Shown in pieces: positions 1 to 23,974 of a stretch of 64,000 nt of DNA (its first letter is position 1; each line of letters opens with the position of its first letter). The DNA lies in assembly GCA_963832165.1 (NCBI GenBank), contig CAWHTE010000007.1, forward strand, positions 256,001 to 320,000, written 5' to 3'. The notes below the pieces were generated by a model. That model had not been told where the DNA came from, searched no databases, and worked only from the letters and a program-made list of their open reading frames with translations. The position numbers were made by a program, and so were the translations under genes. The stretch is from an uncultured delta proteobacterium (lineage in GTDB: Bacteria; Myxococcota_A; UBA9160; SMWR01).

Positions 1-3000
1 TGGAGCCCGTGATGGCGTCCACGCCGACGAACGAGCCGTTGATGAACGCGGTCGCGTTCGGCGTGACACCGAAGTTGCCGAATGTTCCGCCGCCGAATGT
101 GATACCCGAGATATCGATCTCGTCGATCCCATCGGCCGGCGCGGGAGACAACGGATTGCCGCAGGCTCGGGTCGATGTAGAGCCGCGATCCAAAGCGGCC
201 GAGCTGCCCGGCGTCTCCGATCGTCGTGCCGCTGAAGGAGAGACCTTCGATATCGGTGTAGCCCTGGATCGAAGACGAGGGCATTCTCGTAGATCGCCGG
301 TCACGTGACGCCGTCGAAGCTACACGACGCAGCGCATCGGTGCTCGACGCCACGGGCATTCCGCCGCTGAGATAGCCGGCGATTCTGGATGCCGTGGTCG
401 GCGCTGAACGCGGGCACTGCCGATGTCGTCCCGGTCACCGTCACACCGGTGAATGCCGCGGCGTTCGCCGGTGTACTCGAACAGCAGGATGTCGCCCGCA
501 CCACCCGATCCCAGCTGGTTGTCGCCATTGCCGCTCGAGTTGGCGAGGTTCGAGATCTCGACGTTGAGCGCGTTACCGCCGCCGTTGATGAAGATGGCGT
601 TCAGGTCGTAACCGGAGGCCACGACGTTGTCGATCGCGATCGTGCCGAGCTGCGTCGCGGAATTGCTGAACGGTGCCGTTGAACCGGATGCCGCGATCCG
701 TGGCGGCCACGAGCGACGAGTCGAGCGTGAGGTTCGAGATCTCCACGCGATCGCTCGCGCCAGGCACGGTCGCACCGTCGATCGTGAACCCCGCGACGCT
801 CACGTCGCTGGCATCGCCCGATGCACCTGTGATGGTCACCGCCACGTCGACGAGGACGTTCTCGTTGTACGTGCCGTCCAAGACCAGGATCGTGTCGCCA
901 TCGCTCGCCGCATTCACCGCCGCCTGGATCGTCGTGAACGAGCCGAACGTGCCGGCTGGTCGACGATGAGAACGGTCGTGTCCGCAAACTCGAGCGACTC
1001 GACGCCGGTCAGCGTGTCGGTGCCGTCGTCGATCGGGTAGCGGCTGCGTTGTCGGCCACGGAGATCCGCGGCGGACCCGTAAGGAAGCTGACCGTGTAGT
1101 CGGCGAAGTCGCCCGAAACGGGCAAGTCGCTGTTAACGCCGTGTCGAGGCTATCGTCGCCCGTGTCGCCCGTGAGCGAATCGTTCGTCGTGCCGCCGGTC
1201 ACCGTGTCGACGCCCGCGCCGCCCGTCAGGGTATCGTTGCCCGATCCGCCATCGATGTGTCGTTCTCGGCTGCCACCTTCGAGCGTGTCGTTGCCACCGT
1301 TACCGTTGATCACCTGCTCCACGCCGGTGACGCCGGAGCCGTCGTACACGTCGTCGCCCGCGCCGCCCGTGAAGGTCACCGTGCTCGGGGTCACGCCCGC
1401 CAGCGACAAGTCGCCCGTCAGCGTCACGGTCGAGCCGTTCGGGTCCGCCGTGATGGCGATGTTCTCGACGCCGCTGACCGTGTCGACCCCGCTGCCGCTG
1501 CGCTCCACGTGAGCTCGAGCTGATTCAGGCCGTTGACGATCCCGGACAGATTCGAAGTCGTACCCACGCCATTGTTGAGCAGGACATTCAGCGTATCCGT
1601 GCCGAGCCCGCCCGTGATCGAGTCGCTGCCGTCACCCACGAACTCGACGAACGTGTCGTTCCCGCCGCCGCCGTTCAGCGTGTCGCTGCCGCCGTTGCCG
1701 ACGATGATCGCGTTCTCGTTGCCGCTCGTGATCACGTTGGCGCCGGCGTCGCCCTGCAGCGCCATCGGGTCCGGCGCGCCCGTCACGTCGATGCCCAGGG
1801 TCGAGAAGTCGATGTTCCCGCCGACCCCGTCGATGTTCACCGCGAGCTGGAAGCTCGTGCTGTCCGCCGTGATCACGACGTTCGACCCCGTGAGGCCGTT
1901 GATATTGTCGTAGTTGATGATCGCGATCGGCACCTTCTCGTAGCTGCCGCTGATCGTGATGTCCGTCAGCGACACGATGCCCAGCGCACCGGTGTCGGAG
2001 CGCATCTGGATCCCGTTCTCCGCGATCGCGACGTTCTGGCCGCCGTTGGAAAGCGTCAGATCCGAAAGGGTCGCGTTCCCGTTGTACTGGAACAGGATGA
2101 TGTCGCCATCGCCGCTCGACGACTGCACCGGATCGCCGGTGTTCTGACCGCCGTTGTCCGTGAACGTCGAATTGCTGATCGTCGATGTTGCCGAGGTTGG
2201 TCCCGTTGAGCACCTCGACGCCGTTGCGGTAGTTGCTCGTGAACGCGGAATCGTCGATCGCGAGCGTGCCCAGCGTCGCGCTGGACGTGAACTGGATGCC
2301 GCTCTGGGTCGCGTCCACGAAGGCGATCCCGCTGATCGAGAGCGTGTCGCCGGCGCCCAGGTCGCTGTCGATCAGGAAGCCGGACTGGTTGGCGCCCGGA
2401 GGCGTCACGATCGTGGCGCCGGGGCCGGAGCTGCCGGACCCGACGATCGTCAGATCCTTCGTGATCGTCACGCTCTCGTTGTACGTACCCGACGAGATCA
2501 GGATCGTGTCGCCGGCGTTCGCCGCATTCACCGCCGCCTGGATCGTCGTGAACGAGCCGAAGGTGCCGGTCTGGTCGACGATCAGAACCGTGGTGTCCGC
2601 GAACACGAGCGACTCTACGCTGGCCAGGGTATCGGTGCCGTCGTTGCCATCGATTCCCGGCTGGTCGTCGACCACCGTGATCTGCGGCGGACCCAGACTG
2701 AAGCCCACCGAGTAATCGGCGAAGTCGCCCGCAAACTGGGCGGTGTCGCTGTTGGCGCCGCCGTCGAGGCTGTCGTCGCCCGCGCCGCCCGTGAGCGAAT
2801 CGTTCCCCGTGCCGCCGGTCACCGTGTCGACGCCCGCGCCGCCCGACAGCGTGTCGTTGCCGATCCCGCCGTCGATCGTGTCGTTGCCGCCGCCGCCCGA
2901 GAGCGTGTCGTTGCCACCGTTGCCGTTGGCCACCTGGTTCACGCCGGTGACGCCGGAGCCGTCGTACACGTCGTCGCCCGCGCCACCCGTGAAGGTCACC

Positions 3001-5167
3001 GTGCTCGGGGAGACGCCCGCCAGCGACAAGTCGCCCGTCAGCGTCACGGTCGAGCCGTTCGGGTCCGCCGTGATGGCGATGTTCTCGACGCCGCTGACCG
3101 TGTCGACCCCGCTGCCCGCTGCGCTCCACGTGAGCTCGAGCTGATTCAGGCCGTTGACGATCCCGGACAGATTCGACGTCGTACCCACGCCATTGTTGAG
3201 CAGGACATTCAGCGTATCCGTGCCGAGCCCGCCCGTGATCGAGTCGCTCCCGTCACCCACGAACTCGACGAACGTGTCGTTCCCGCCGCCGCCGTTCAGC
3301 GTGTCGCTGCCGCCGTTGCCGACGATGATCGCGTTCTCGTTGCCGCTCGTGATCACGTTGGCGCCGGCGTCGCCCTGCAGCGACACCGGGTCCGGTGCGC
3401 CGGACACGTCGAAGTCGAACGCTCCGAAGTTGATGTTCCCGCCGACGCCGTCGAAGACCACCGACTCGTTGAACCGCGTGCTATCGGCCGTGACGTCCAC
3501 GTCCGTAACCGTGAGGTTGTTGACGTCGTCGTAGTTGTTGAACGTAATCGCCCGCTTCTCGTAGAGCCCGCTGACCGTGATGTCCGTTGAGCGTCACGGT
3601 GCCCAGGGAACCCGTATCGGCGCGGAACTGGATCCCGTTCTCCGCGTACTTCGTGTTGGGAGGGATGATCCCGACGGTGCCGTCCTGAGATCCGTTGGTG
3701 AGCGTCAGGTTCGACAGCGACGCATTGCCGCCGTACCCGAAGAACAGGATGTCTCCGTCTCCGCTCGAGCTGTGCACGGGGTCGCCCACGAACTGACCGC
3801 CGTTGTCCGTGAAATTGGAGCCGGTGATCGTCGTGTTGGTGACGGCACTCACCGAGTTCGCCTGGATCTCGATGCCGTTTTGGTAGTTGCTCGTGAAGTC
3901 GCAGTTCGTGATCGTGAGCTGATCGATCCCCGCCGCGCCCGACACCTGGATGCCGCTGCGACCCGCGTCGTCGAACGTGATCCCGCTGATGCGTCAGCGT
4001 GCCCACCGCACCGAGATTCGTGGTCACGACGAAGCCGGACTGGTTGGCACCCGGAGGCGTCACGATCGTGCTGCCCGCGCCGTCGCCGACGATCGTCAGA
4101 TACTTGTCGATCGTTACGTTCTCGTCCCAGGTCCCCGACGCGATCATGATCGTGTCACCGGCGGTCGCTGCATTCACCGCGGCCTGGATCGTTGTGAAGC
4201 CGCCGCCGCCCACCAGCGAGGAAGTCCGGACCGCTGGCGTCCTGAACGCGTCTCGATCTCGGTCAGCGTCTCGGTGCCGTCGGTGCCCGAAGCCACCTGC
4301 CACGCGCTGCCCGTGTACGTGATGTTCGAGGAGAGGAGCTCGTCGCTGTACACCGCGATGTCGCCGAGGCCTGCGCCCTCCGTGACCGCCGTCGATCGTG
4401 TCGGTGCCGCCATTGCCGCGCAGCGTGTCGTTCCCGGTGCCGCCCGAAAGCGCGTTCGCGTTGATGTCGCCCGTCAGCGTGTCGGCGCCGGATCCACCGA
4501 TCGCATTCTCGACGCTCGCCACGGAATCCGTGCCGATCTCCGTGCCGGTGGCCGAGCCGCCTAGCGTCACGCTCACGCCCAGTGTCGTCGCCGACGCGTC
4601 GTAGGTATCGGTGTCATCTCCGCCCGTGATCGTGTCGTTTCCAGCGCCCGCGATGATCGTGTCGTCGCCCGTGCCGCCGCTCTCGATATCGTTGCCCAAC
4701 CCGCCGAGGAGCGTGTCGCTGTTTGCACCACCCGAGAGCGAATCGTTGCCCGCGCCGCCGGTGAGCGTGTCGTCACCGCCGTTGCCGTTGAGCGTGAGCG
4801 GTGTGGTCGAAGTGATTCCCGAGCCGTCGAACGAATCGTCCGATCCACCGCCGGTGAACGTGATCGCGTCGATTGCCGCGAGCGACAGGTTGCCGGACAG
4901 CGTGACGTCGGAGCCGTCCGCGTCGGCGTTGATGATGACGCTCGAGAAGTCCTGGATTTCGAGATCATCATCGCCGACGGTGTTGGCATCGGTGTCGAAG
5001 TTCAGATCGACGACGTCGCTGCCCGTGAGCGGACCCGTGCCAGCCGCGACCGCACCGGTGACGTTCGACTTGGTGCCCAGCGTCTCGTTGTCGAGATTGA
5101 CTGTTAGGCTGTCGTCGTTTCCGTCGAGGTGGTTGACGCCAGACGGCGGGTCGTACGTGATGGGCAT
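1..5167 (-). CDS. Giant RTX-type Ca-binding / right-handed beta-helix repeat protein (probable T1SS-secreted adhesin); split over several frames by indels, 3' end outside window
   Basis: ATG at 5167 with AAGGA RBS. ORF pieces 3353-5248, 3481-3945, 1632-3500, 1424-2128, 573-1508 and 320-775 carry GGxGxDxLxG repeats, and the pectin-lyase-like FTTIQAAVNAAxxGDTI motif occurs three times. No Sec signal. Similar coding sequence (DEIDISGITFGGGTFGNFG) continues to position 1. Confidence 0.85.
1321..1760. repeat. Internal repeat copy A of adhesin gene (near-identical to 2941-3380; looser similarity over about 900-1790)
   Basis: Direct sequence identity at an offset of 1620-1621 bp. Confidence 0.95.
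2941..3380. repeat. Internal repeat copy B of adhesin gene
   Basis: Matches 1321-1760 with few substitutions and one C-run indel. Confidence 0.95.
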
Positions 5168-5222
5168 CGTGTGGTCCTTCGCGGTTGAGCGCGGCCGAGG
5201 CTGCGCGGCGAAATGCCCCGGC

Positions 5223-5265
5223 AACTTACCACCGCGCAGCGGCGACAAGGGGAATTATTTCCCCT
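5223..5265 (-). promoter_or_regulatory. Putative extended -10 (TGnTAAGTT) and adjacent operator-like palindrome AGGGGAA-TTAT-TTCCCCT upstream of adhesin
   Basis: TGGTAAGTT on minus strand 5231-5223; perfect 7-bp inverted repeat 5248-5265. Confidence 0.4.
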
Positions 5266-5537
5266 GTGCGCTGATTAGTCGCGATTTCTTCACCGACCGA
5301 TCGATCGTTCATCGAAAGCACGGGAGTGCTTAGTCGCGGTGAAACGACATTCGCTGCGCGAGCGATCGAAATAACAACAGGCCGGTGCCCTCGTGAGAGG
5401 ACGGTCGGGGACTACACAGGATCGGCGGTACCGATACCGACAGTGCTCGAAGTATCAGGCGAGCAAACCATCGGCTTGACGACCCGTCAGCAGCGACCGA
5501 AATAGCGGTTCAGCACCGCCCGCCGCCGTCGAGCTGA

Positions 5538-6875
5538 CTACTCCTCGTGCAGTGCGCGGAAGAAGCTGTCGGAGAGCGGTGCGATCGCGTAGCGGAAGAA
5601 GGTCCGCTCGCCCGTGACGATCAACACCTCGGCGGGCATGCCGGGCTGGAGCACGACGTCGCTGAACCGCGCGAGCTGATCGGGCGGGATCGAGACATGA
5701 GCCTCGTAGTACGAGACTCCCGTCTCCTTGTCGACGAGCGCGTCCGCCGAGACATGATCCACGCGTCCGACCAGGATCGGGACCACGCGCTGCCGGAACG
5801 CCGTCAGGCGCACGTTGGCCTCGAGGCCCACGCGCACCATCTCGATGTCGGTAGGGCGAATGCGAGCCTCCACGAGCAGGTCGCCACCCGTCGGGACGAT
5901 GTCGAGGATCGCGTCGCCGCGATTGATCACACCCCCGGGCGTGAAATAACGCAGCTTGACGACGGTTCCAGCAATCGGCGCGACGACGTCGCGCCGGGTC
6001 AGCACGTCCGTGGCCGCGCGCAGCGCCTCCTCGGTCTCCGAGAGGCGTTCGCGAACATCGTGCTGTTGAGAAACCACCTCATTGAGCAGATCGCTCTCGG
6101 TCTGGCTGATCTCGAGCCGGGCTTCGCCGATCTTCTGCCGGGCGCGCGCGGCCAGCGCCGCTGAGCTCTGGCGCATCCCCTCGAGCTCGGCGACCTGGCG
6201 GCGGAACTCGAGCAGCCGTGGCTTCGCCTCGAAGCCGCGCTCGACGAGCGTCTCGATGCTCGCCATCTGCTCCCGGACGCTGTCGAGCTGGCGTTCGGTC
6301 GATTCGACCCGAGCGGCGTAGCTCGCCGCCTCGGATTCGAGCTGCACGATCGTCTGCTCGAGGATCGACACGCGACCGAGATACGCCTCTCGGCGCTTGG
6401 CGAAGATGCGCTCCTGGCCGGTGATCAGCTCGTCGACACGAGGCTCGCTTCGCCGGTCCGTCAGCCCCGCTGGAAAGATCACCGCTTCGGCGGTCTCGCG
6501 CTCGGCGCTGAGCCGCGCGTACTCGGCGGAGAGTGCGTCGTGCCGTGCCTGGTACATCTCGCGCGATGCGCGCGACTGCGTCTCGTCGAGACGCAGCAGA
6601 ACGTCTCCCGCCTTCACAGAGTCGCCTTCACGCACCCGGATCTCGCGGATGATCCCCCCCTCGAGGTGCTGCACCGTCTTGCGCTGGTCGCGCACCGCGA
6701 CGTGGCCGGGTGCGACAGCGGCGCTCGAGAGCGGCGCAAGCAGGCTCCACAGCGCGAAGCCCCCGACGAAGAGAACGACGACGGCGGCACCCAGGTAGAG
6801 CTCGCGCTGGAATTGCGGGCCCTCGGCGAGCGCGCGAGCGCTGCGTGCCTCGAAGTCGGTCGCGCCCGTCGTCAT
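5538..6875 (-). CDS. HlyD/PrtE family type I secretion membrane fusion protein
   Basis: N-terminal TM, RKTVQHLEGGII, APIAGTV and LQPGMPAEVLI motifs; ATGA overlap with the ABC gene. Confidence 0.95.
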   Translation of the reverse strand: MTTGATDFEARSARALAEGPQFQRELYLGAAVVVLFVGGFALWSLLAPLSSAAVAPGHVAVRDQRKTVQHLEGGIIREIRVREGDSVKAGDVLLRLDETQSRASREMYQARHDALSAEYARLSAERETAEAVIFPAGLTDRRSEPRVDELITGQERIFAKRREAYLGRVSILEQTIVQLESEAASYAARVESTERQLDSVREQMASIETLVERGFEAKPRLLEFRRQVAELEGMRQSSAALAARARQKIGEARLEISQTESDLLNEVVSQQHDVRERLSETEEALRAATDVLTRRDVVAPIAGTVVKLRYFTPGGVINRGDAILDIVPTGGDLLVEARIRPTDIEMVRVGLEANVRLTAFRQRVVPILVGRVDHVSADALVDKETGVSYYEAHVSIPPDQLARFSDVVLQPGMPAEVLIVTGERTFFRYAIAPLSDSFFRALHEE

Positions 6876-8590
6876 TCACTCGACTCCACCGCGCGCGGGA
6901 AGACGGGGCGGGGAGCGGGTACCGCGGCGGGTTCGACCCTGGCGAGGTTCGCGAGCACCTCGTCGCGCGGGCCGTATTGCTCGATGGCGCCGTCTTTCAA
7001 CACGAGGATTCGATCCATCGCCTGCACGACGCTCATCCGGTGCGCGATCACGATCACGGTGGCGCCGCGCCGCTTCAGATAGGCGAGCGCCTGGATCAGG
7101 GCGTGCTCTCCGTCGGAATCGAGATTGGCGTTCGGCTCGTCGAGCACCACGAGCCGCGGCTCCCGGAAGAGAGCGCGCGCGAGGGCAATGCGCTGGCGCT
7201 GGCCGCCCGACAATCGCCTTCCCGCCGTACCGATCTGCGTGTCGTAGCCCTCGGAAAGGCGCAGGATCATCTCGTGACATCCCGCGAGCTGAGCTGCCTT
7301 CACGACCTCTTCGTCGGTCGCTTCCACCAGTCGCGCGATGTTCTCCCGCACCGAGCCCCCGAAGAGCTCGACGTCCTGCGGCAGGTAGCCGACGTGATGG
7401 CCGAAGTCTTCGCGCGGCCACGTGAAGACATCGGCTCCGTCGAGCCGGACCACGCCCGATACCGGCTTCAGCACGCCGACCAGAATTCGCGCGAGCGTGG
7501 TCTTGCCCGAGCCCGAGGCCCCGATCAATGCCAGCGAACCACCGGCCGGTAGCGAGAAGCCGATCCCCTTCAGCAGCGCCTGCTCGGCCTTCGGGAACGC
7601 ATACACGACTCGCTCGATGTCCAGGCGCCCCTTGGGCGTGGGCAGGGCAGTGCCGCGCTCGCGCAGGCGGGCGCGCCCGAAGAACTCGACGAGGCGGTCG
7701 TACGCCTGGCGCGCGCCGACCAGCTGCCGCCAGGTGAGGATCGCCTGCTCCACGGGCGAGAGGGCGCGCGCGAGGATGATCGAGGCGCCGATCATTCCGC
7801 CCGGCGTCATCTCGTTATCGAGCACGAGGAAGGCGCCCAGCCCGAGCATTCCCATCTGCAGCGCGAGCCGCAGGAAGCGGCTCGTGGAGGCGATCACGCC
7901 GCCGCGATCGCTCGCCACCTGCTGGTCGGTGATCACCTCTTCGCCCTGACGATCCCAGCGCGAGACGATCGGCCCGAACATTCCCATCGCATCGATCACT
8001 TCCGCGTTGCGCAGCGCGTCCTCGGCGCTCCTCGCGTTGGTGATCTGGTTCCAGTTCGCTGCCTTGAGCCGCTCCCGCGTCGTGATCTCATTGAGCACCG
8101 CGAGACCGAGCAGCACGAGAGAACCGACGAGCGCCATCGAGCCGAGCGCCGGGTGGATCAGGAAGATCACCAGCAGATAGATGGGTGTCCACGGGGCGTC
8201 GAAGAAGCAGAGCAACGTGGGGCCGGAGAGAAAGTTTCGCAGCTGCGCGAGGTCTTGCAGCGACTCGGCGCGGTAGGTGTAGCCCTGCAGCTGAGCTTCC
8301 AGAGAACGCGCGAACGTCTCGGGGGCGAGGCTCCGCTCCACCCAGTTGCCGACGCGCACCAGCATGCGGGCGCGCACCCAGTCGAGCGCGGCGAAGGCAA
8401 GCAGAGCCGCAACCGCGATCAGGGTCAGGAACAGAAGCGTATCGGTATTGCGGCTCCCGAGTACGCGATCGTAGACCTGCATCATGTACAGCGGGATGGT
8501 CAGTGCGAGCACGTTCAGCGCGAGGCTGAACGCCGCGGGGTACAGGAGCGCCCGGCGGCAGCGGCGGCGCGCCTCGTCGAGGGTGCTCAG
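6872..8590 (-). CDS. PrtD-like type I secretion ABC permease/ATPase
   Basis: PLYMMQVYDRVL, Walker A GASGSGKT, LSGGQRQR, LDEPNANLD. PrtD-like sequence extends upstream of GTG 8512 to a CTG at 8590 that overlaps the recombinase stop. Confidence 0.93.
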   Translation of the reverse strand: MSTLDEARRRCRRALLYPAAFSLALNVLALTIPLYMMQVYDRVLGSRNTDTLLFLTLIAVAALLAFAALDWVRARMLVRVGNWVERSLAPETFARSLEAQLQGYTYRAESLQDLAQLRNFLSGPTLLCFFDAPWTPIYLLVIFLIHPALGSMALVGSLVLLGLAVLNEITTRERLKAANWNQITNARSAEDALRNAEVIDAMGMFGPIVSRWDRQGEEVITDQQVASDRGGVIASTSRFLRLALQMGMLGLGAFLVLDNEMTPGGMIGASIILARALSPVEQAILTWRQLVGARQAYDRLVEFFGRARLRERGTALPTPKGRLDIERVVYAFPKAEQALLKGIGFSLPAGGSLALIGASGSGKTTLARILVGVLKPVSGVVRLDGADVFTWPREDFGHHVGYLPQDVELFGGSVRENIARLVEATDEEVVKAAQLAGCHEMILRLSEGYDTQIGTAGRRLSGGQRQRIALARALFREPRLVVLDEPNANLDSDGEHALIQALAYLKRRGATVIVIAHRMSVVQAMDRILVLKDGAIEQYGPRDEVLANLARVEPAAVPAPRPVFPRAVESSE

Positions 8591-9198
8591 GGCAGCCAGC
8601 TGTTGCGCCCGCGCATGACCTCGAAGAGGTCGCGGGGCGCGACGCGCGCGATGTAGCGCTCAGTCGTCGCAGAGCTCCGATGGCCGAGCTGGGCCTGGAT
8701 CAGCCCGATCGGTACTCCTTCGCGCGCCAGCTCGGCCACCAGCGTGCGGCGCAGTACCTCGGCCGATATGCGTTTCCCGATCCTCGCCTTCGCGCCGAGC
8801 CGCGTGAACAGCGCGCGTACGTACGAGGGGCTGAGTCGGTCCCCTCGGAGCGTGCAGAACAGCGGAGCTGTCGGCTGGATCTGGAGGGATTTCCTTCTCC
8901 GGATCCACATGTCCAGGACCTGATAGGAGGATGCATCGAGCGCGACCACCCGGCTCGGTCGGCTGACGTGAATCGTCCTGTCGAGACCATCGACGTGCAT
9001 CTCGGCGAGGGAGATCGATTCCGATACGCGGAGCCCACAGCGATACATCACCGTGATCATCGCGCGATTGCGCAGCCCGGTGGACGCTTGGCTCGAGCAC
9101 ACCTCCAACAACCGCCGCACTTCGTCTGGCGTGAGCAGCGCACCACCGTCGGAGCGCGATTCCGGGTCCGCAGTCGTCGAGTGCCCGGTCGTCAACAT
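8587..9198 (-). CDS. Short tyrosine-recombinase-family protein (catalytic domain only, FimB/FimE-sized) with degenerate active site
   Basis: LTPDEVRRLL, LRNRAM..MYRCGLRVSE and IQAQLGH.S..TTERY motifs. HxxR reads EVLR and the GKGxK loop is missing. Start at 9198 (ATG) or 9270 (TTG). Confidence 0.85.
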   Translation of the reverse strand: MLTTGHSTTADPESRSDGGALLTPDEVRRLLEVCSSQASTGLRNRAMITVMYRCGLRVSESISLAEMHVDGLDRTIHVSRPSRVVALDASSYQVLDMWIRRRKSLQIQPTAPLFCTLRGDRLSPSYVRALFTRLGAKARIGKRISAEVLRRTLVAELAREGVPIGLIQAQLGHRSSATTERYIARVAPRDLFEVMRGRNSWLP

Positions 9199-9315
9199 GG
9201 GGGTGCCCCGCGCGTTTGATGCGAGCGTGGACGGGTAACGGATGCTAGTCGAATCCGCTGAACGCACCAACGTATCATGCCCTGTGAACTCTTCGAGGAT
9301 GGAATGAATCGGTCA

Positions 9316-9428
9316 CCTACCAGTTATGACGACTCATGACTCGCCTACCAGTTAAGACTTCTCATTACTCGTTACCAGTGAAGGTTTTTGATTACTCACC
9401 TTCCGGTCGAGGCTTTTCATTGCTGCTT
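9316..9428. repeat. Tandem array of four degenerate 27-28 bp units with inverted arms (recombinase core-site-like)
   Basis: CCTACCAGTTATGACGACTCATGACTCG / CCTACCAGTTAAGACTTCTCATTACTCG / TTACCAGTGAAGGTTTTTGATTACTCA / CCTTCCGGTCGAGGCTTTTCATTGCTGC; units 1 and 2 are 24/28 identical, units 2 and 4 are 19/28. Confidence 0.85.
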
Positions 9429-9514
9429 GAGCAGCCCGTCCCCCAAAGGGGGTATACACGCCGCCGAATTCATGGGAGTGTCGTCGAGCGGCCAGACCGC
9501 GAAGATTCGAAGAC

Positions 9515-11236
9515 ATGAGCAGCCTTGAAGTAGCTGTAAGTAATCACGAAACGACACCGAATCCCGGATCAGCCGCCATCTACTACGAACGCGACGGATT
9601 CGACACGTCGCGTCGGAAGCTGATGGGGCGCCACGTGGCAGGTGCCAGTTTCCTGAGCGCCATGGCGCGTTACGCGGCGGCGTCGGAACTCGTCGCGGTG
9701 ACCCCGACCGCGGAGCACTTCGCGGACTTCCAGGCGCGAGTCACGGCTGCGAAGGCGAGCCGGGCGGTCCGCTGGATCCCGGCGAGTGAGCCGGAAACGC
9801 TCGCCGAGGTGGGCTGTCTCTTCTATCCCGGCGTTCCGCCGGCGGATTGGGCCTGGATCCGCCGGCGCGATGGGCAGCGCCGCTTCAGCCTGTGTGGGAT
9901 CACGCACACAACCGCAAGCGTCCGCGCGATGAAGGCTGTCGGAGAGCTCCTCGTGGCGCCGTTCCAGAGCTGGGACGCTCTCATCTGTACCTCGAAAGCC
10001 GTCTACGAGATGGTCGAGCAGCTGCTCGATGGGTATGAGGACTATTTGAGCGCGCGAATGGGAGGGCTCAAGCCAGACCGACCACAGCGGCCGATCATCC
10101 CCCTCGGAGTCGATTGCGAAGCGCTCGCGCCGGGAACGATGGCGGCCTCCCGTGGACGCGCGCTGCGCGCGCGCGCCGGGATACCCCTCGACGCTTTCGT
10201 CGTTCTGTTCGTCGGCCGTCTCTCCTTCCATGCCAAGGCCCACCCTCTCCCGCTCTATCTCGCGCTCGAATGCGCGGCCCAGCGCAGTCCCGGCCCTCTC
10301 TACCTGCTGCTCGCGGGATGGTTCGCGAACGACGGCACCCAGAAGCAGTTCGAAGACGCGGCGCGGCTCTTCTGCCCATCCGTGCAAGTCGTCACCGTCG
10401 ATGGGCGCAATCCCGAGATTCAGCACGACGTCTGGCACGCGGCCGACATATTCGCATCGCCGTCTGACAACATTCAGGAGACGTTCGGCCTGGCACCCGT
10501 CGAAGCGATGGCCGCGGGCCTTCCCACCGTGGTCTCGGATTGGGACGGCTACCGCGACGGTCCTCGACACGGCGTGGAGGGCTTCCTGATCCCGACCTGG
10601 CTCGCTCCTGCGGGATCCGGAGAGGATCTCGCGCGGCGTCATCAGCTCGAAATCGACGACTACGATCACTACATCGGGCACGCCGGACAGTTTGCGGCCG
10701 TCGAAGTGGCCGCGATGGCGCGCGCCTTCGAGACGCTGATGGTGCGCCCCGAGCTGCGGCAGGAGATGGGTGTGCGCGCGCGCCGCCGCGCCGTCGCCGC
10801 CTTCGACTGGCCCGTGATCATCGCGCAATACGAAGAGCTCTGGACGGAGCTCGCGGCGAGGCGTTCCGCCGAGGAGGAGAACGCGCCGGTTCGGCCGCAC
10901 GCATCACCGGCACCGCTCAACGCCGATCCATTCGCGCTGTTCGCCGGCTATCCCTCCGAGCGCCTGCACGCCGACACGCTCGTGAGTCTCCTTCCCGGAG
11001 CGGTTCCGCACGCGCTTCACGAGCGGACGAGCTTGTTCATGAACGCATTGGCACGCGCGTTGATCTGCCGGCCCGAGACCCTCGACGCGCTCTTCACCGA
11101 GCTCGACCGACATCGTGAATGCAGGAGCGCTGACCTGCTCGGGGCGCTCTCGCCCGCGGATCGCCGCGCCGTCCAGCGAACGCTGGTGTGGCTCGCCAAG
11201 CTCGACCTCGTGCGACTCCGCAACCCGGATTCGTAG
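9515..11236 (+). CDS. Glycosyltransferase family 4 (GT-B) protein
   Basis: LFVGRL and ETFGLAPVEAMAAGLPTVVSDWDG GT4 signature. Confidence 0.9.
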   Translation: MSSLEVAVSNHETTPNPGSAAIYYERDGFDTSRRKLMGRHVAGASFLSAMARYAAASELVAVTPTAEHFADFQARVTAAKASRAVRWIPASEPETLAEVGCLFYPGVPPADWAWIRRRDGQRRFSLCGITHTTASVRAMKAVGELLVAPFQSWDALICTSKAVYEMVEQLLDGYEDYLSARMGGLKPDRPQRPIIPLGVDCEALAPGTMAASRGRALRARAGIPLDAFVVLFVGRLSFHAKAHPLPLYLALECAAQRSPGPLYLLLAGWFANDGTQKQFEDAARLFCPSVQVVTVDGRNPEIQHDVWHAADIFASPSDNIQETFGLAPVEAMAAGLPTVVSDWDGYRDGPRHGVEGFLIPTWLAPAGSGEDLARRHQLEIDDYDHYIGHAGQFAAVEVAAMARAFETLMVRPELRQEMGVRARRRAVAAFDWPVIIAQYEELWTELAARRSAEEENAPVRPHASPAPLNADPFALFAGYPSERLHADTLVSLLPGAVPHALHERTSLFMNALARALICRPETLDALFTELDRHRECRSADLLGALSPADRRAVQRTLVWLAKLDLVRLRNPDS

Positions 11237-11243
11237 AACGGAG

Positions 11244-12092
11244 ATGACTTCAACGGAAGCGGCGTTCCGTGGACTGGACCTTCGGCTGAGCCGGCTCCGT
11301 CCGTGGCGCCACGGCCTGATGCTCTTTCTGGCCGCCGACAAGATCATCGGCCGAGCGCTCGAGCTCTACGGCGAGTTCGCCGAAACCGAGAATCGCGTGA
11401 TGGTGCGGCTCGTCGGGGCGGGCGACCTCGTGCTGGATGTCGGAGCCAACGTCGGCACCGTCACGCTCCCGCTCGCCGCGCACGTCGGGCCGAGTGGCCG
11501 GGTGATCGCATTCGAACCGCAACGGCTGGTCTTTCAGCATCTGTGCGCGAACATCGCGCTGAACGGCCTGACCAACGTCGACGCGCGATGGGCTGCGGTC
11601 GGCGCGACCGCGGGGAGCGCTCGCATCCCGGCGCTCGATCCCACGCTCGCCGAGAACTTCGGCGCGACACGGCTGGCCGCGGATGGTGAGGTGGTCGCGG
11701 TGACACCCATCGACAGCTTGCAGCTCGAGCGGTGCGACCTGATCAAGATCGACGTCGAAGGGATGGAAGACGACGTGCTGAGAGGCGCGGAGCACACCAT
11801 CGCGAAGCACCGTCCGGCATTGTATTTCGAAGCCAAAAAGAGTGATAACACACGATGGTGTCTATCGTGGCTGTTGCAGCGGGACTATCGCCTCTACTGG
11901 CACTTCGCGCCGTTCTTCAGCCGACCGAATCATCGCGGGCTGGACCACAATGTGTTCGGCGATTACGGAGACATCAACGCGCTGGCGCTTCCAGGGGAAA
12001 GCAACAGGCACCTGCACATGCCCCCGGTAACCGCTGCCGATGCCGATTGGCAGGTGGCCTACCACCGTTGGGGCGATGAACAGAAGCGCTAG
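11244..12092 (+). CDS. FkbM family SAM-dependent methyltransferase
   Basis: VLDVGANVG, VIAFEP, IKIDVEGME; GGAG RBS before ATG 11244. Confidence 0.92.
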   Translation: MTSTEAAFRGLDLRLSRLRPWRHGLMLFLAADKIIGRALELYGEFAETENRVMVRLVGAGDLVLDVGANVGTVTLPLAAHVGPSGRVIAFEPQRLVFQHLCANIALNGLTNVDARWAAVGATAGSARIPALDPTLAENFGATRLAADGEVVAVTPIDSLQLERCDLIKIDVEGMEDDVLRGAEHTIAKHRPALYFEAKKSDNTRWCLSWLLQRDYRLYWHFAPFFSRPNHRGLDHNVFGDYGDINALALPGESNRHLHMPPVTAADADWQVAYHRWGDEQKR

Positions 12093-13956: not shown

Positions 13957-15488
13957 CTAACGCACAGCAGCGCTGGTGCTCGAGAGCAGTGCGCCGACCG
14001 AGTCGCGCGCCCAGTCGAGCACGTTCACCTCGCCGATGATCGGCAGCGCGCCGTTCGGGAACAGTCCGAGGTAGAGAACGCCTGCGGCACAAACGGCGAG
14101 CACGGCGATCTCGCCGCTGTCGAGCCCGACGCGCGGAGCCTCGTCGCCGGGATCGCGCATGTACATGAGCACCGGAATGCGCAGGTAGTAGTAGACCGAC
14201 ACGACGCTCATCATCACGCCCAGAATCGCGAGCGGAACCTGGCCTGCGTCGACCGCGGACTTGAAGATCAGGAATTTGCCCGTGAACCCGGCCGTGCCGG
14301 GGATCCCCGCGAGCGCGACCATGAACAGCGTCATGAGCGCGGCGAGCCCGGGCCGGCGCTGCGCGAGGCCCGCGAGCGAGCTCATGCGCTCACAGTCCTG
14401 ACCTCGATTCGCGAGCGCCACCACCACGCCGAATGCGCCCAGGTTCATGAACAGATAGGCGATCAGGTAGAACACGACCGCGGAGTAGCCCTCGGCGGTG
14501 CCGGGCACGAAGCCGATCAACAGGTAGCCCGCGTGCGCGATGCTCGAGTAGGCGAGCAGCCGTTTGACGTTCTCCTGGATCACGGCCATCACATTGCCGA
14601 CCACGAGCGTGGCCGCCGCGAGCACCCAGAGCAGGTTCCCGAGCAGATCGCCGAGCGGCTCGAACGAGAGCGCGAGCACGCGCAGGAACGCCGCGAATGC
14701 GGCGATCTTCACGGTCACGCTCATGAACGCAGTCACCGCGGAGGGCGCTCCCTCGTAGACGTCGGGCGTCCACTGGTGGAACGGCACCGACGAGATCTTG
14801 AACGCGAAGCCCACGACCACGAAGCCGAGCCCCGCGACCGCGAGCGGGTTCGCCGGATCGAATGCGGCCCGGATGCCCGCGAACGACGTCGTCCCGGCCA
14901 CGCCGTAGAGCAGCGCCACGCCGTAGAGCAGGATCGCGCTCGCGAACGAGCCGATCAGGAAGTACTTCATCGCCGATTCGTTGCTGCGAAGACGCCGGCG
15001 ATCGAAGCCTGCGAGCACATAGATCGGGATGCTCATGAGCTCGAGGCCCAGGAATACCGGCAGCATGTCGACCGCGGCCACCAGGAGCATCATCCCCGAG
15101 GTCGCGAACAGGATCAGCGCGTAGAACTCGCCGTGGTTGATGCGCAGCTCGTCGAGATAGTGCATCGACAGCGCGCACGAGAGCAGCGCTGCGAGCCCGA
15201 TCACGGCGGTCACGAGCGCCGAGAACGGATCGAGCTGGAACATCGGATGGCCGACTTCGAAGGCCAGCGCGGTGCCCAATCGCGCGACGTCGGCGGCCAT
15301 GTAGGTGGCCGCGCCGAGCGAGAGCATCGAGATCAGCGCGAGCACGCTGCCGATGTACGACTCGGTGAGGCGCCGGCCCAGCAGCGTCTTGCGGCGCGAG
15401 AGCAGCACCTCGCCCACGAGCACGAACATCGCACCCGCACCCACGGCCACCATGGGACCGAGTACGGAGAGGTTGAGCTGGGGCGGGG

Positions 15489-15492
<4 letters not shown>
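13957..15492 (-). CDS. nuoN: NADH-quinone oxidoreductase subunit N
   Basis: FKISSVPFHQWTPDVYEGAP, KRLLAYSSIAHAGY. Confidence 0.95.
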
Positions 15493-17105
<1,613 letters not shown>

Positions 17106-17107
17106 CA

Positions 17108-19126
17108 CTAACTCAGCAGGTACCAGAGGATCGCCGCGGTGCCCGCGAGCATCGACGCGACATATCCCTGGGCGAGGCCCGATTGCAGTCGGCGCAGACC
17201 CGCTGACGCGAACAGCTGCACCGCGCGCGCGCTCCCGTTCACGGCCACGGTGTCGATCAGGCCCGCGTCGACGGCGCGGTACAACACCGCGTCGGAGACG
17301 CGCACGAGCGGGCGCACGATCATTGCATCGTAGATCTCGTCGACGTAGTACTTGTTCGCGAGCAGCCTGTGGAGGCCCGCGAAGCGCGGCGCAGGCAGCT
17401 CGGGGCGCGCGGCGTACAGGCGGTAGGCGATCACCCACCCGAACACCGCGATTCCGATCGCCACGCCCATCATCGCGTACTCGGTCGCGTGCGAGATGTG
17501 GTGCGGCGCAGCGCTCGGCCAGATCGGCGACAACCAGTTCGCGAGGCTGTGCGGGTTCTCGACACCGAACCAGTCGCCGATGACCTGGGGAATGCCGAGC
17601 ACGCCGCCCACGGCCGACAGCGCCGCGAGTGCGATCAGCGGATTGGTGACCCAGTTCACGGGCTCGTGCGCGTGCTCGTAGACGTCCTTCGACGCGCGCG
17701 TCTCGCCGTGGAACACGAGGTAGTACAGCCGCCACATGTAGAACGCGGTGATCCCTGCCGTGAGCAGCCCGATGCCGTAGAGGATCTCTGCGCCCGGCAC
17801 GTGCGATGCGAACGCGCTCGCGAGGATCTCGTCCTTGGAGAAGAAGCCCGAGAACGGCGGGAAGCCCGAGATCGCATAGACACCGCAGAAGAACACGAGA
17901 TGGGTGAGCGGAATCCTGCGCCGCAGGCCGCCCATCTTCATGATGTCCTGCTCGTGGTGCATCGCGAGGATCACCGCGCCCGCGCCCAGGAAGAGCAGCG
18001 CCTTGAAGAACGCGTGGGTCACGAGGTGGAAGATCGCGCCCGTGTAACCGCCGCATCCCGCGGCGAGGAACATGTAGCCGAGCTGGCTCACCGTGGAGTA
18101 CGCGAGCACTTTCTTGATGTCGGTCTGCGCGATCGCGATCGTGGCCGCGAACAGCGCCGTGAGCGCGCCCGTCCACGCGATCACCGCGCTCGCGAACGGC
18201 GCCGCCGCGTACAGGAACGACAGGCGGCACACCATGTACACGCCCGCGGTGACCATCGTGGCCGCGTGGATCAGCGCCGACACGGGCGTCGGGCCCGCCA
18301 TCGCGTCGGGCAGCCACACATAGAGCGGGATCTGCGCCGACTTGCCGGCCGCGCCCACGAACAGGCACAGCCCGATCACGTCCACGAGGCGCCACTCCGA
18401 GCCCCACGGCGTCGCGATCGTCCGCTCGGCGATCGCGGCGAAGTGCTGCGAGATGTCGGCGAAGCCGACACCCGCGGGCACGCCCGCCTCCACGAACGAC
18501 GCGAACAGCAGGAAGATCCCGATCAGGAAGCCGAAGTCGCCCACGCGGTTGACGATGAAGGCCTTGCTGCCGCAGTAGGCGTTGTGGCGATCGCTGTACC
18601 AGAACCCGATCAACAGATAGGAGCAGAGGCCTACACCCTCCCAGCCCAGGAACATCAGCACGAGGTTGTCGGCCAGCACCAGCACGAGCATCGAGAACGT
18701 GAACAGGTTCATGTAACAGAAGAAGCGCTGGAATCCGCGGTCGTCGCGGTGGTCGTCGTCCATGTACCCGACCGAGTACACGTGGATCAGCAAGCCGACG
18801 CCCGTGACCACGAGCGCCATCACCGCCGAGAGCGGATCGACGCGCAGCGCGAGCTCGGCCGTGAAGCGCGTCGCGCCGATGCCCGCCCCGAACCAGGTGC
18901 TCAGGCGGTCGACGAGCACGCTGCCCTCGGGCATGCCGACGAGCTTCGAGAACGCGATGCACGAGATCAGGAACGAGAGCGCGACGCTGCCGCACGACAG
19001 AGCGATCACGACCGGCCGCGGCGTGCTGCGCCGCACGATGCCGATCGCCACGCCGTGGAACGCCGCGGCCAGGAGTGGCAGCAGCGGAATCCAGCGCAGC
19101 AGGTTCTCCGCGGTTTCGTTCACCAC
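17108..19126 (-). CDS. nuoL: NADH-quinone oxidoreductase subunit L
   Basis: GKSAQIPLYVWLPDAMAGPTPVSALIHAATMV. Confidence 0.96.
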   Translation of the reverse strand: MVNETAENLLRWIPLLPLLAAAFHGVAIGIVRRSTPRPVVIALSCGSVALSFLISCIAFSKLVGMPEGSVLVDRLSTWFGAGIGATRFTAELALRVDPLSAVMALVVTGVGLLIHVYSVGYMDDDHRDDRGFQRFFCYMNLFTFSMLVLVLADNLVLMFLGWEGVGLCSYLLIGFWYSDRHNAYCGSKAFIVNRVGDFGFLIGIFLLFASFVEAGVPAGVGFADISQHFAAIAERTIATPWGSEWRLVDVIGLCLFVGAAGKSAQIPLYVWLPDAMAGPTPVSALIHAATMVTAGVYMVCRLSFLYAAAPFASAVIAWTGALTALFAATIAIAQTDIKKVLAYSTVSQLGYMFLAAGCGGYTGAIFHLVTHAFFKALLFLGAGAVILAMHHEQDIMKMGGLRRRIPLTHLVFFCGVYAISGFPPFSGFFSKDEILASAFASHVPGAEILYGIGLLTAGITAFYMWRLYYLVFHGETRASKDVYEHAHEPVNWVTNPLIALAALSAVGGVLGIPQVIGDWFGVENPHSLANWLSPIWPSAAPHHISHATEYAMMGVAIGIAVFGWVIAYRLYAARPELPAPRFAGLHRLLANKYYVDEIYDAMIVRPLVRVSDAVLYRAVDAGLIDTVAVNGSARAVQLFASAGLRRLQSGLAQGYVASMLAGTAAILWYLLS

Positions 19127-19425
19127 TTGAGCAGACTCACGTCTTCGATGTTCACGGAATCCCGGTTGCGGAACATCGAGATCACGATGCCGAGCCCCAC
19201 CGCCACCTCGGCCGCCGCGACCGTGATCACCATCAGCACGAACACGTGGCCGTCGTAGTTCGCGGGCCAGAGCCGGTTGAAGCCCACGAACGCGAGGTTC
19301 ACGGCGTTGAGCATCAGCTCGATCGACATCAGGATCACGATCATGTTGCGGCGCGTGACGACACCCACGACGCCGATCGCGAACAGGATCCCCGAGAGTC
19401 CGATCACGTGGTCGAGCGGAATCAT
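19120..19425 (-). CDS. nuoK: NADH-quinone oxidoreductase subunit K
   Basis: SIELMLNAVNL, VAAAEVAVGLG. Confidence 0.96.
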   Translation of the reverse strand: MIPLDHVIGLSGILFAIGVVGVVTRRNMIVILMSIELMLNAVNLAFVGFNRLWPANYDGHVFVLMVITVAAAEVAVGLGIVISMFRNRDSVNIEDVSLLKW

Positions 19426-19432
19426 GGGCGCC

Positions 19433-19933
19433 TCAATCGATCTTCCGCTTCGCGAGGATCAGCGCACCCACGATCGCGGCCGTGAGCAGGAGCGACGCCA
19501 TCTCGACGAGCAGGATGTAGTCGGTGTAGAGGGCGATCCCGACGGACCGGTAGCCGCCGAAGCCCGCCGGCAGCGGTGGCGCCGCGGGCAGCGCACCGAC
19601 GCGGCGCATCACCTCGGCCACCCCGAACACGCCGAGCAGCGCGCCCGCGAGCTTGGTCAAGCGCGCGCGGCCGGGTGCGAAGTCGTCGCTGCGCAGATTG
19701 AGCAGCATCACGACGAACAGGAACAACACCACGATCGCACCCGCGTAGACCATGATCTGGATCGCCGCGACGAGATGCGCCTCGAGCAAGAGGTAGATGA
19801 TCGCGAGCGCCACCATCGTGACCACGAGAGAGAGCGCCGCGGCGACGGTGTTGCGCGTGTTCAGCACCATCCCGAGCGCTGCGAGCACCGAGAGCACGGC
19901 GAACAGGTAGAACAGGAATACCGGAACCGTCAC
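19433..19933 (-). CDS. nuoJ: NADH-quinone oxidoreductase subunit J
   Basis: QIMVYAGAIVVLFLFVVMLLN; GTGA overlap with the nuoH stop. Confidence 0.95.
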   Translation of the reverse strand: MTVPVFLFYLFAVLSVLAALGMVLNTRNTVAAALSLVVTMVALAIIYLLLEAHLVAAIQIMVYAGAIVVLFLFVVMLLNLRSDDFAPGRARLTKLAGALLGVFGVAEVMRRVGALPAAPPLPAGFGGYRSVGIALYTDYILLVEMASLLLTAAIVGALILAKRKID

Positions 19934-21081
19934 GGCGTCCCCTTCACGAGCAGGATCACGAAGCCGGTCACGAAGATGTTCGCGATCGAGAGCGGCAGGA
20001 TGATCTTCCAGCACAGGTCCATCACCTGGTCGTACCGGAAGCGCGGCAGCGTCCAGCGCAGGAGCATCTGGACCCAGATCATCACCACCACCTTGATCAT
20101 GAAGGTGAGGAAGTGGAGGAGGATGCAGATGCCGTTCGCGAAGCCCTCGTTGAACACGGGGCTGATCGCGCCGACGATCGTCTCCGTGGAGAGATAGGGA
20201 ATCGCCCAGCCGCCCAGGAACAGCGTGGCGATCAGGCCCGCGATCACCACGACCTCGATGAACTCGGACATGAAGAACAGGCCGAAGCGCATGCCCGAGT
20301 ACTCGATGAAGTAGCCCGCGATCAGCTCCGACTCGCCTTCGGGCAGGTCGAACGGCGGCCGCTTGTTCTCGGCCATGATCGTGGTCAGGAACATCAGGAA
20401 GCCGAGCGGCTGATAGAACAGGCCCCAGGCCGGCAGGCGCACCCAGTCGAGCCACTGCGGCACGGGTACGCCGAGCAGGTGCTCGAGGAAGCCGAGCACG
20501 CGGAACGTGGTGTCCTGCGCGATAACCATGTCCTGGAGCTGGAGCGTCTGGAACACCATGAAGATGCCGACGACCGACAGCCCCATCGTGACCTCGTACG
20601 AGATCATCTGGGCCGACGCGCGCAGGCCGCCGAGCAGCGACCAGTTGTTGTTGCTCGCCCAGCCCGCCATCACGGTGCCGTAGGTGGCGATCGAGCCGAT
20701 CGCGAAGATGTAGAGCAGGCCCCAGTCGGGGTTGGCGGCCACGAGCGAGATCGTGTGCGAGCCGAACGTGTAGACGCCGCCGAACGGAATCACCGCGTAG
20801 GCGATCACGGCGGGCACCGCGGCGATGACTGGCGCGATCAGGTGCATCACCCGGTTCGCGCCCGTCGGAACGACGTCTTCCTTCGAGAGCAGCTTGAACA
20901 CGTCGGCGAGCGGGTGGAGCAGGCCGAGCACCGTGATCCCGGCGATGTCGGCGCGGTTCGCGCCGATCCGGTCCTGCATCACGGCGCTCTGCTTGCGTTC
21001 GATCCACGTGATCACGGGCGCGAGCGCGGCCACCACCACGAGCAGGATGAACAGCGACTTGATCACTACCTCGACGATCAC
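19930..21081 (-). CDS. nuoH: NADH-quinone oxidoreductase subunit H
   Basis: ERK..A.MQDRIG, AQMISYEV, PFDLPEGESEL, PRFRYDQ. Confidence 0.95.
   Translation of the reverse strand: MIVEVVIKSLFILLVVVAALAPVITWIERKQSAVMQDRIGANRADIAGITVLGLLHPLADVFKLLSKEDVVPTGANRVMHLIAPVIAAVPAVIAYAVIPFGGVYTFGSHTISLVAANPDWGLLYIFAIGSIATYGTVMAGWASNNNWSLLGGLRASAQMISYEVTMGLSVVGIFMVFQTLQLQDMVIAQDTTFRVLGFLEHLLGVPVPQWLDWVRLPAWGLFYQPLGFLMFLTTIMAENKRPPFDLPEGESELIAGYFIEYSGMRFGLFFMSEFIEVVVIAGLIATLFLGGWAIPYLSTETIVGAISPVFNEGFANGICILLHFLTFMIKVVVMIWVQMLLRWTLPRFRYDQVMDLCWKIILPLSIANIFVTGFVILLVKGTP

Positions 21082-22669: not shown

Positions 22670-22670
<1 letters not shown>
21078..22670 (-). CDS. nuoG: NADH-quinone oxidoreductase subunit G
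   Basis: Fe-S motifs CWH..GSCRLC, HPLDCPICDQAGEC, CILCRRC, CTGCANGC. Confidence 0.93.
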
Positions 22671-23965
<1,295 letters not shown>

Positions 23966-23974
23966 GGGGGAGTG

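Follow-up and report, generated by a model that had tools for sequence, protein, structure and literature searches.

A clade of tyrosine recombinase homologues predicted to have lost catalysis and to act at AGTGTCG-type half-sites near surface-protein genes

The stretch of DNA analysed in this report (hereafter, the window) comprises 64,000 nucleotides of the 5.5-Mb genome G000, from an uncultured delta proteobacterium (G000:C7:256001-320000). On its minus strand lies a gene for a homologue of tyrosine recombinases (YRs). We find that its product belongs to a clade whose members lack residues needed for catalysis and whose genes are commonly accompanied by the short DNA motif AGTGTCG. Because the catalytic residues have been lost yet the genes adjoin a DNA signal of ancestral type, these proteins are likely to be local regulators of surface-protein genes. 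Specifically, we lean towards the view that the clade (here called the dead clade, after its predicted catalytic state) consists of non-cutting, sequence-specific DNA-binding regulators that would act at AGTGTCG-type half-sites in surface-protein promoters. A first-pass annotation of the window had proposed a domesticated, non-catalytic recombinase with a regulatory link to surface genes. As far as sequence can tell, the former idea is borne out by the joint change of two catalytic elements throughout a clade under purifying selection, and the latter is favoured by the placement of half-sites near surface-protein promoters. The conserved cis element is the AGTGTCG half-site, which that annotation missed.

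The recombinase-like protein and its clade

The 203-residue product of the open reading frame (ORF) matches PF00589 with an E-value of 6e-31 in a profile search. Its predicted model is a single catalytic (CAT) domain with the YR fold (predicted local distance difference test score, pLDDT, 90), and Foldseek matches it to XerA with an E-value of 1e-10 and a template-modelling (TM) score of 0.75. No core-binding (CB) domain is present, and the open frame at the locus is only 241 amino acids long. The absence of this domain is not a sign of decay, because the catalytically intact relatives are mostly about 200 amino acids long too. Consistent with its earlier description as a degenerate recombinase of about 200 residues, the protein retains R57, R150, H173 and Y182, so that Arg-I, Arg-II, His/Trp-III and the tyrosine nucleophile are all present in the window member. 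The His-II position of the HxxR motif is occupied by Glu147. The general-acid lysine of the beta2-beta3 hairpin is missing from a loop that is 4-5 residues shorter than in XerA/XerD, and Arg80 falls within this shortened loop.

Mutagenesis of Cre indicates what these changes would mean. Five substitutions reported at His289, Glu among them, were inactive in vivo, and none of the substitutions described at Lys201 recombined in vitro (PMC2943603). Given these results and the clade-wide nature of the residue changes, we infer with high confidence that the dead clade has lost cleavage.

In total, 445 homologues were identified, and the 120 listed ones were examined for motifs. In 30 of these, including the query, SxExLRR replaces HxxLRH; the histidine is kept in 80 and is Gln or Ser in the other 10. 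The GKG-type loop is absent from all 30; three do have a lysine at another point of the loop, in no constant position. Throughout the clade, the His-to-Glu change and the loss of the lysine loop therefore co-occur, as the first-pass annotation had anticipated; in seven of the 30, the catalytic Tyr is also replaced by Phe. In a tree of 110 sequences, for which intact hits were partly subsampled and the loop, motif and Tyr columns were removed, the 34 dead-type sequences are monophyletic (support 0.984) and nested inside the intact family. The window protein is 41-55% identical to intact family members.

The dead clade is evidently under purifying selection, as judged from ratios of nonsynonymous to synonymous substitution (dN/dS). 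These range from 0.12 to 0.63 in the 22 pairs listed, with dS near saturation in most, and from 0.22 to 0.46 in the 10 pairs that include the window gene. Five residues are invariant in all 29 aligned sequences, namely S125, Y126 and R128 in the recognition helix, which aligns with that of XerD in the window protein, and R198 and W201 at the C-terminus. In contigs of a close relative, 18 codons have changed; 10 changes are silent, and the other 8 spare the invariant residues.

Representatives of the clade are sparse. Of 44 genomes from the family, 4 carry a member, as do 5 of the 225 genomes from the class, always as a single copy, and a phylum-wide search of 401 genomes yielded zero new members; one named homologue, P0012, derives from a Myxococcota metagenome-assembled genome. 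With only 14 candidates scored for each genome, no second family match at E<=1e-40 was found in the five genomes with a dead gene; in G000, the hits other than the dead gene are all XerC/XerD-like. Neither a transposase nor an intact family member was found beside dead genes.

Two other groups in the family also appear degenerate. Three natural fusions of 430-490 amino acids (P0121, P0123 and P0124) join an N-terminal degenerate YR domain (xxLRR, no Lys loop) to a C-terminal intact domain. Their degenerate halves form a clade of their own, and so represent a second, independent predicted inactivation. Additionally, a subclade with the motif HA(Q/S/M)GLRY and no GKG loop (P0038, P0064, P0069, P0076 and six more; L023, L026 and L033), some of whose members have an altered Tyr region, is possibly another inactivation in the same family.

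The ancestral core and the AGTGTCG half-site

To compare flanking DNA, we removed XerC/D hits, known duplicates and 26 near-duplicates, which left 13 dead, 69 intact and 19 other loci. One locus (L111) is cut before the diagnostic motif and was assigned to the dead set by its loop. At the intact loci, a palindrome lies just upstream of the gene. Of the 21 palindromes found by a strict rule among the 69 intact loci, 19 span exactly 28 bp, and a matrix also finds this 28-bp core, at 32 intact loci. The consensus half-site is AGT(T/C)ACGCTT, the core runs 28 bp from AGT to ACT, and a third half-site often stands directly before the gene. This core is the true 11-6-11-type site of the parent family; it is absent from positions 9181-9600 of the window.

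The intact proteins form a large unnamed family of CB-less YRs of about 200 amino acids (L149, L155, L160-L165, L007, L009, L012 and others). They occur in phage and island contexts, and one genome (G081) carries six intact copies, two of them beside terminase-like ORFs. The catalytic His is present in all 21 viral hits, none of which is of the dead type. The intact family likely represents resolvases of prophages or islands. At one locus (L158), an intact gene is flanked by a direct repeat of about 55 bp, located about 250 bp upstream and directly downstream, which resembles a minimal one-gene integrated cassette.

Beside dead genes, AGTGTCG is the most enriched 7-mer. It is a variant of the ancestral half-site and is also used by two intact loci (L075 and L165). 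The motif occurs in the flanks of 11/13 dead, 7/69 intact and 3/19 other loci (Fisher p 1.5e-7, dead vs intact). By comparison, 200 shuffles gave a mean of 1.6 and a maximum of 5 loci, and the motif is found in 20 of 371 low-GC genome windows. It persists beside genes that are only about 50% identical, with dS near or above 1. At five loci (L003, L038, L058, L111 and L147), paired half-sites span 27 bp. Spacing and orientation vary among dead loci, and the exact 7-mer is missing at 2 of the 13.

Within the window's genome, further sites were sought with an out-of-sample matrix built from 19 sites of other genomes. The window recombinase belongs to an island, a block of about 22 kb (C7:245944-268100) that also holds a fragmented RTX gene and, left of the window, two tandem PEP-CTERM genes. 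Three sites before these two PEP-CTERM genes rank 2nd, 3rd and 4th in the 5.5-Mb genome, a site upstream of the RTX gene ranks 67th, and the sites at 9477 and 9548-9558 reach p about 5e-5. Within the island, AGTGTCG-type sites are found 7-9 kb from the recombinase gene. A larger excess among the top 500 matrix matches is an artefact of RTX coding repeats.

The promoters of PEP-CTERM genes offer the clearest context for the half-sites. At four dead loci with a PEP-CTERM neighbour (L002, L003, L147 and L148; the call at L003 has a Pfam score just below the cut-off), a GGAA-N6-TTCC palindrome and a sigma-54 motif are 206-288 bp apart, and the stretch between them contains half-sites. G000, which encodes at least 49 PEP-CTERM proteins, also has unlinked pairs of this palindrome 21-31 bp apart, at C1:307887, C1:751165, C3:737948, C4:275658 and C7:996234. 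Four of these five pairs have a sigma-54 motif 110-138 bp downstream and no AGTGTC site, and several precede PEP-CTERM genes. We consider them a candidate enhancer motif distinct from the published TTTACA-type motif. We had considered GGAA-N6-TTCC as the recombinase's own site, and rejected this idea because such pairs accompany sigma-54 motifs elsewhere without AGTGTCG. Instead, the palindrome is likely to be the site of a general enhancer-binding protein. Only 4 of the 49 PEP-CTERM genes in G000 have AGTGTC[GA] upstream, two of them in the island. Because of this, and of the four unlinked promoters that lack AGTGTC, the half-site appears specific to recombinase-linked loci.

Unlinked matches to the extended motif AGTGTCGYTT were also inspected. 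In G001, a 95% complete genome in which the gene was not found with this query, all eight sites are inside ORFs. Three genomes that have the gene contain 14 unlinked matches. Of the 13 that were examined, with a rough ORF caller, at least 3 are clearly intergenic (L205, L209 and L214), and one intergenic site precedes a PEP-CTERM gene.

Several observations weigh against a regulatory role at these half-sites. AGTGTCG was found in the same 13 loci in which it was then counted, and related loci do not count as independent cases. Of the three top-ranked sites in the island, two derive from one tandem duplication, and the RTX coding repeats yield motif-like matches. A matrix of the intact clade gives 46 hits in dead flanks, a borderline result given that shuffles average 27 hits and reach 46 at most. 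Counts of AGTGTCGYTT against a reversed control (5/1, 6/2, 6/8 and 0/2 in four gene-bearing genomes) show an inconsistent excess, and G000 has no genome-wide excess of half-site pairs spanning 27 or 28 bp. In the window, the half-site at 9477 has no 27-bp partner, and neither a sigma-54 motif nor the enhancer-like palindrome was found in the 500 bp upstream of the recombinase gene. PEP-CTERM neighbours occur at just 4 of the 12 other dead loci; elsewhere the neighbours differ, for example beta-lactamase-family genes at L001/L036, and GH65 and MMPL genes at L039/L042. A domesticated regulator would not usually be distributed so patchily, with a dead-clade gene in 5 of the 225 genomes from the class. 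Finally, the proposal as a whole rests on sequence and a predicted fold.

The tandem array and the surrounding locus

The features of the locus are collected in Table 1. The gene upstream of which the array lies is divergent from a GT4 glycosyltransferase gene, and the array occupies the intergenic region between them. The first-pass annotation had read this array as four contiguous 27-28-bp units, and this holds: units start at 9318, 9346, 9373 and 9401 (spacing 28/27/28), and the tandem statistic of 0.59 exceeds the values from 1000 shuffles of the intergenic region (mean 0.42, maximum 0.52). The further parse of each unit as an 11-6-11 site fails. In units 1-4, the inner 7 bp of the arms pair at 6, 5, 4 and 2 of 7 positions, which upholds the description of imperfect inverted repeats for this portion, and the outer 4 bp pair at only 1, 2, 0 and 1 of 4. 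Because only the inner 7 bp pair, a unit is at best a 20-bp AGT..ACT palindrome (7-6-7) and an 8-bp linker, with very little symmetry in unit 4. The central 6 bp are, as had been noted, the most variable part (1-5 of 6 identical between units), and all four spacers differ. The array is AT-rich as claimed (44% GC), and the intergenic region as a whole is only mildly so (55% GC).

Table 1. Coordinates of features in the window, with strand and supporting score
Feature	Position	Strand	Support
RTX-repeat adhesin-like gene, 5' part, in several out-of-frame pieces; extends left of the window	573..5168	-	
GGGGAA-N4-TTCCCC palindrome resembling the PEP-CTERM enhancer-like element (putative enhancer-protein site)	5249..5264	.	
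Further half-site-like AGTCGCGATTT upstream of RTX gene	5277..5287	+	
Paired half-sites AGTCGCG ... CGACATT, 20-bp span, upstream of RTX gene	5332..5351	.	right arm p 6e-6
HlyD-family type I secretion system (T1SS) adaptor	5538..6875	-	TIGR01843
PrtD-type T1SS permease/ATPase	6872..8590	-	TIGR01842, above cut-off
Homologue of tyrosine recombinases, 203 aa, catalytic domain only, predicted non-catalytic (SAEVLRR; loss of Lys hairpin)	8587..9198	-	
Tandem array, four 27-28-bp units, each a weak 20-bp (7-6-7) palindrome plus linker; seen in this lineage only	9318..9428	.	
Clade half-site AGTGTCG upstream of GT4, also in L038	9477..9483	+	p 6e-5
GT4 glycosyltransferase, divergent from recombinase	9515..11236	+	
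Half-site GGTGTCGTTTC (9558-9548), aligned with L038 site	9539..9558	-	p 5e-5
FkbM-family methyltransferase	11115..12092	+	

Three identities for the array were tried and rejected. Xer/dif sites or family core sites, which the earlier reading as former Xer-type crossover sites implied, do not fit the geometry (7-6-7 in 20 bp vs the 28-bp core). As a dispersed regulon motif, the array fails since the best other G000 score of the unit matrix is 17.8 vs 32-44 for the training units. Evidence for a structured RNA is also lacking (z = -0.52; one Rfam hit with E 0.51, below the gathering score).

The array had further been proposed as a conserved operator, which the other loci do not support. None of the 12 other dead loci has a comparable array (tandem statistic 0.39-0.55 vs 0.59, a modest margin), and the orthologous locus L038 keeps half-sites without one. 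Among 224 other genomes of the class, no DNA like the array was found beyond short weak matches outside it. In a close relative, one 151-nt contig of depth 3 joins 9363 to 9440 via 20 other letters, a net change of -56 bp or two periods; this is weak evidence for variation in array length, and does not suggest a clean crossover. The best flanking inverted pair is 22 nt at 73% identity (9378-9399 / 9536-9557), with no perfect flanking inverted repeat, and no strand-change joint was seen in the contigs of four sequencing runs, whose cover is thin.

A relationship between the array and the recombinase family is nevertheless tentatively conceivable. All six arms in units 1-3 match a combined family matrix, with p 3e-4 to 6e-3; on the dead-clade matrix, only one of the eight arms reaches p<1e-3. 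Also, the array-like 20-bp arrangement recurs at 5332-5351 and at 9539-9558, where GGTGTCGTTTC and AGTAATC at 9539 form a 7-6-7 arrangement like the array units. The latter site is inside the GT4 ORF as called from the ATG at 9515. On these data, binding of the array by the window protein is a possibility that we rate somewhat below even.

The neighbouring genes were correctly recognized in the first-pass annotation as a T1SS and modification locus; we identify them as PrtD, HlyD, RTX-repeat ORFs, GT4 and an FkbM methyltransferase. The PrtD frame overlaps the recombinase stop (CTGA in the window, ATGA in L038), and the two genes are therefore likely co-transcribed. No sigma-70 promoter or terminator was found in 9150-9600. 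At L038, the recombinase homologue is 68% identical and has the same GT4 and PrtD neighbours, both of which appear broken. The expectation that homologues would share this context was not realized: T1SS/GT neighbours occur at only 2 of 13 dead-clade loci, and the upstream array was seen only in the window's lineage.

The RTX/Ig-repeat adhesin-like gene (window 573-5168 plus G000:C7:248460-256000) consists of many out-of-frame pieces and has the signature of an internal duplication of about 1.6 kb; its broken frame may reflect assembly error or decay. On the right, the island is bounded by housekeeping DNA, the minus-strand nuo operon for NADH:quinone oxidoreductase (window 13957-24733). Only 1 of 10 insertion points examined has a tRNA nearby, 3.5 kb distant. 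The dead genes at L039, L040 and L042 have a common element upstream, which comprises TATATACACA and two palindromes spaced 33-34 bp apart; TATACAC is found in the window as well, at position 9454.

Proposed mechanism, alternatives and known systems

We propose the following scheme. The dead clade descends from a family of phage or island recombinases of about 200 amino acids with a 28-bp core before their own gene, as the tree and the motif show. Cleavage was then almost certainly lost, as the changed residues and the Cre mutants indicate. The ability to bind the ancestral half-site was very likely kept in the form of AGTGTCG, given that motif and clade co-occur and that the recognition helix is invariant. 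Contact would be made through this helix, and dimerization would probably involve the conserved C-terminus, by analogy with YR structures. Judging from site positions, the protein probably controls transcription of its neighbours, which would include the PEP-CTERM genes, the RTX gene, the GT4 operon and perhaps its own operon. How it would do so is more doubtful: the likeliest way, which we still rate below even, is that it bends or blocks the DNA between an enhancer-binding protein and a sigma-54 promoter, in the manner of integration host factor (IHF). Such an enhancer-loop arrangement could apply to only part of the clade, because other loci have other neighbours and the window's intergenic region has no sigma-54 motif. 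We read the array not as a set of crossover sites but as a tandem expansion local to the promoter region of the recombinase and GT4 genes, which the protein may bind as an extra operator, with chances slightly against such binding. A more ambitious version, which we think unlikely, is that a phage resolvase lost its cutting activity a single time and was put to new use as a portable stand-in for IHF, dedicated to its locus, that brings its own half-sites and bends the enhancer-sigma-54 spacer to gate PEP-CTERM and RTX genes, with the array as a tunable operator of variable length.

Half-site binding could instead serve a non-transcriptional end, for example if the protein is a target selector or tether for a mobile-element enzyme, or a competitor that blocks the cores of intact relatives. 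TnsF, an inactivated YR-derived target selector, is a precedent for the former (PMC10293859). The half-site shared with intact L075 and L165, the fusions of degenerate and intact domains, and the patchy distribution and varied context of the dead clade are all compatible with this explanation. However, the lack of transposases or intact relatives beside dead genes, or of second family matches in their genomes, argues against it, as do the separate ancestry of the fused degenerate domains and the location of half-sites in promoter regions, and we regard it as improbable. Marginally less probable still is a reading in which AGTGTCG was left behind by the ancestral element or is another factor's site, and in which the protein works through protein contacts or through DNA binding without sequence specificity. 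Variable spacing and orientation, the two loci without the exact 7-mer and the borderline matrix enrichment would fit a relic, whereas persistence of the motif beside such diverged genes, its occurrence far from the gene in the island, and its absence from most PEP-CTERM promoters and from G001 intergenic DNA would not.

The remaining alternatives concern the array or the integrity of the gene. The idea that the array is the protein's main operator, and the switch that defines a T1SS/glycosylation system, draws on the position of the array between divergent genes, its arm scores on the combined matrix and the similar 20-bp arrangements nearby. We consider this quite improbable, since the array's units duplicate one another and AT-richness inflates the scores, only one arm scores well on the dead-clade matrix, no comparable array was found at the 12 other dead loci or in 224 other genomes of the class, and the contig of the close relative lacks two units. 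Excision or shuffling of array units by a still-active recombinase, as proposed in the first-pass annotation, would be consistent with the four retained residues of the window member, with Arg80 in the shortened loop and with a relative's contig shorter by exactly 56 bp. In YR systems, however, differing spacers between sites block strand exchange, and those of the array all differ. Moreover, the 56-bp junction is unclean, with its 20 unmatched letters in a single shallow contig, seven of 30 clade members have no Tyr, and the His-to-Glu and Lys changes each abolish recombination in the reported Cre mutants (PMC2943603). Array editing is thus unsupported and highly improbable. The same grade applies to the idea of a pseudogene in decay beside an array produced by neutral slippage. 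Broken genes are indeed present, including RTX in the island and GT4 and PrtD at L038, but frames are intact across the clade, and the dN/dS ratios and the codon changes in the close relative indicate constraint, so that a pseudogene is already largely refuted for the clade. For the array by itself, a neutral origin would not conflict with the regulatory role that we prefer.

The regulatory proposal matters in part because thousands of genes annotated as "integrase" or "XerD" serve as markers of mobile elements, and some are likely to be regulators. The dead clade would be a clean bacterial case of an enzyme exapted as a regulator. Active ancestors, their 28-bp site, the inactivating changes and the derived half-site are all readable from sequence, and each step is therefore directly testable. 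PEP-CTERM surface proteins have been linked in the literature to floc and biofilm formation. If the bending model is true, a dedicated architectural factor would be added to the sigma-54 control of these proteins.

Some features of the window protein recall well-studied systems. FimB and FimE are also about 200 amino acids long, lack a separate CB domain and adjoin adhesin genes. They are active recombinases that flip a promoter segment lying between repeats, whereas the window locus has no perfect flanking inverted repeat and the window protein scores 46 and 52 bits with models NF007370/NF007371 (cut-offs 221 and 222). It shares its catalytic fold with XerC/XerD, and the 28-bp core of its intact ancestors can be read as 11-6-11, as in dif. 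Unlike those proteins, it has no CB domain, scores only 99 and 92 bits with the XerC/XerD NCBIfam models (cut-offs 330 and 335), coexists in G000 with separate XerC/XerD-like genes, and is accompanied by array units of 7-6-7 geometry. IHF bends DNA between enhancer and sigma-54 promoter, as might be predicted for the window protein by analogy; IHF has an unrelated fold and acts globally, not in a locus-linked manner.

The PEP-CTERM/PrsR region likewise has an upstream activator motif and a -24/-12 promoter before PEP-CTERM genes (PMC1569441). Motif 1 of that system ends in TTTACA about 63 nt from the promoter, and the passages describing it mention no recombinase-like factor (PMC1569441). In contrast, the palindrome found here is GGAA-N6-TTCC, and linked loci add recombinase-type half-sites in a longer spacer.

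In the literature searched (mostly outside subscription journals), we did not find the dead clade described. A classification of YRs defines simple YRs as CB plus CAT, and the passages on them name no CAT-only dead group (PMC8138268). A review of exaptation from mobile genetic elements covers helix-turn-helix and ribbon-helix-helix factors in the parts relevant here, not a clade of this kind (PMC8987985). The closest analogues are inactivated YR derivatives. TnsF of Tn6022 is one such protein with an identifiable active ancestor and sequence-specific DNA binding, and is described as having zinc fingers, tandem CB domains and a partial CAT domain, and as picking transposon targets with TniQ (PMC10293859). 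The window protein differs in having a whole CAT fold, no CB domain and no transposase neighbour that we could find. DUF3504 domains, derived from Crypton YRs (KCTD1, ZMYM2-4 and QRICH1), were also kept after catalytic loss, and many of the proteins regulate transcription; however, they are eukaryotic, are fused to other domains and have lost most catalytic residues, and the account of them describes no inherited DNA site (PMC3212892). FliZ, a global repressor in E. coli, is a DNA-binding regulator that arose from a tyrosine-recombinase-family domain and does not recombine, and it is reported to use the CB domain (PMC3367168), whereas members of the dead clade consist of just the catalytic domain and seem to have a local action, at a half-site inherited from their ancestors. 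The dead clade thus resembles FliZ or DUF3504 in origin, and is a member of neither, nor of the Xer or FimB groups.

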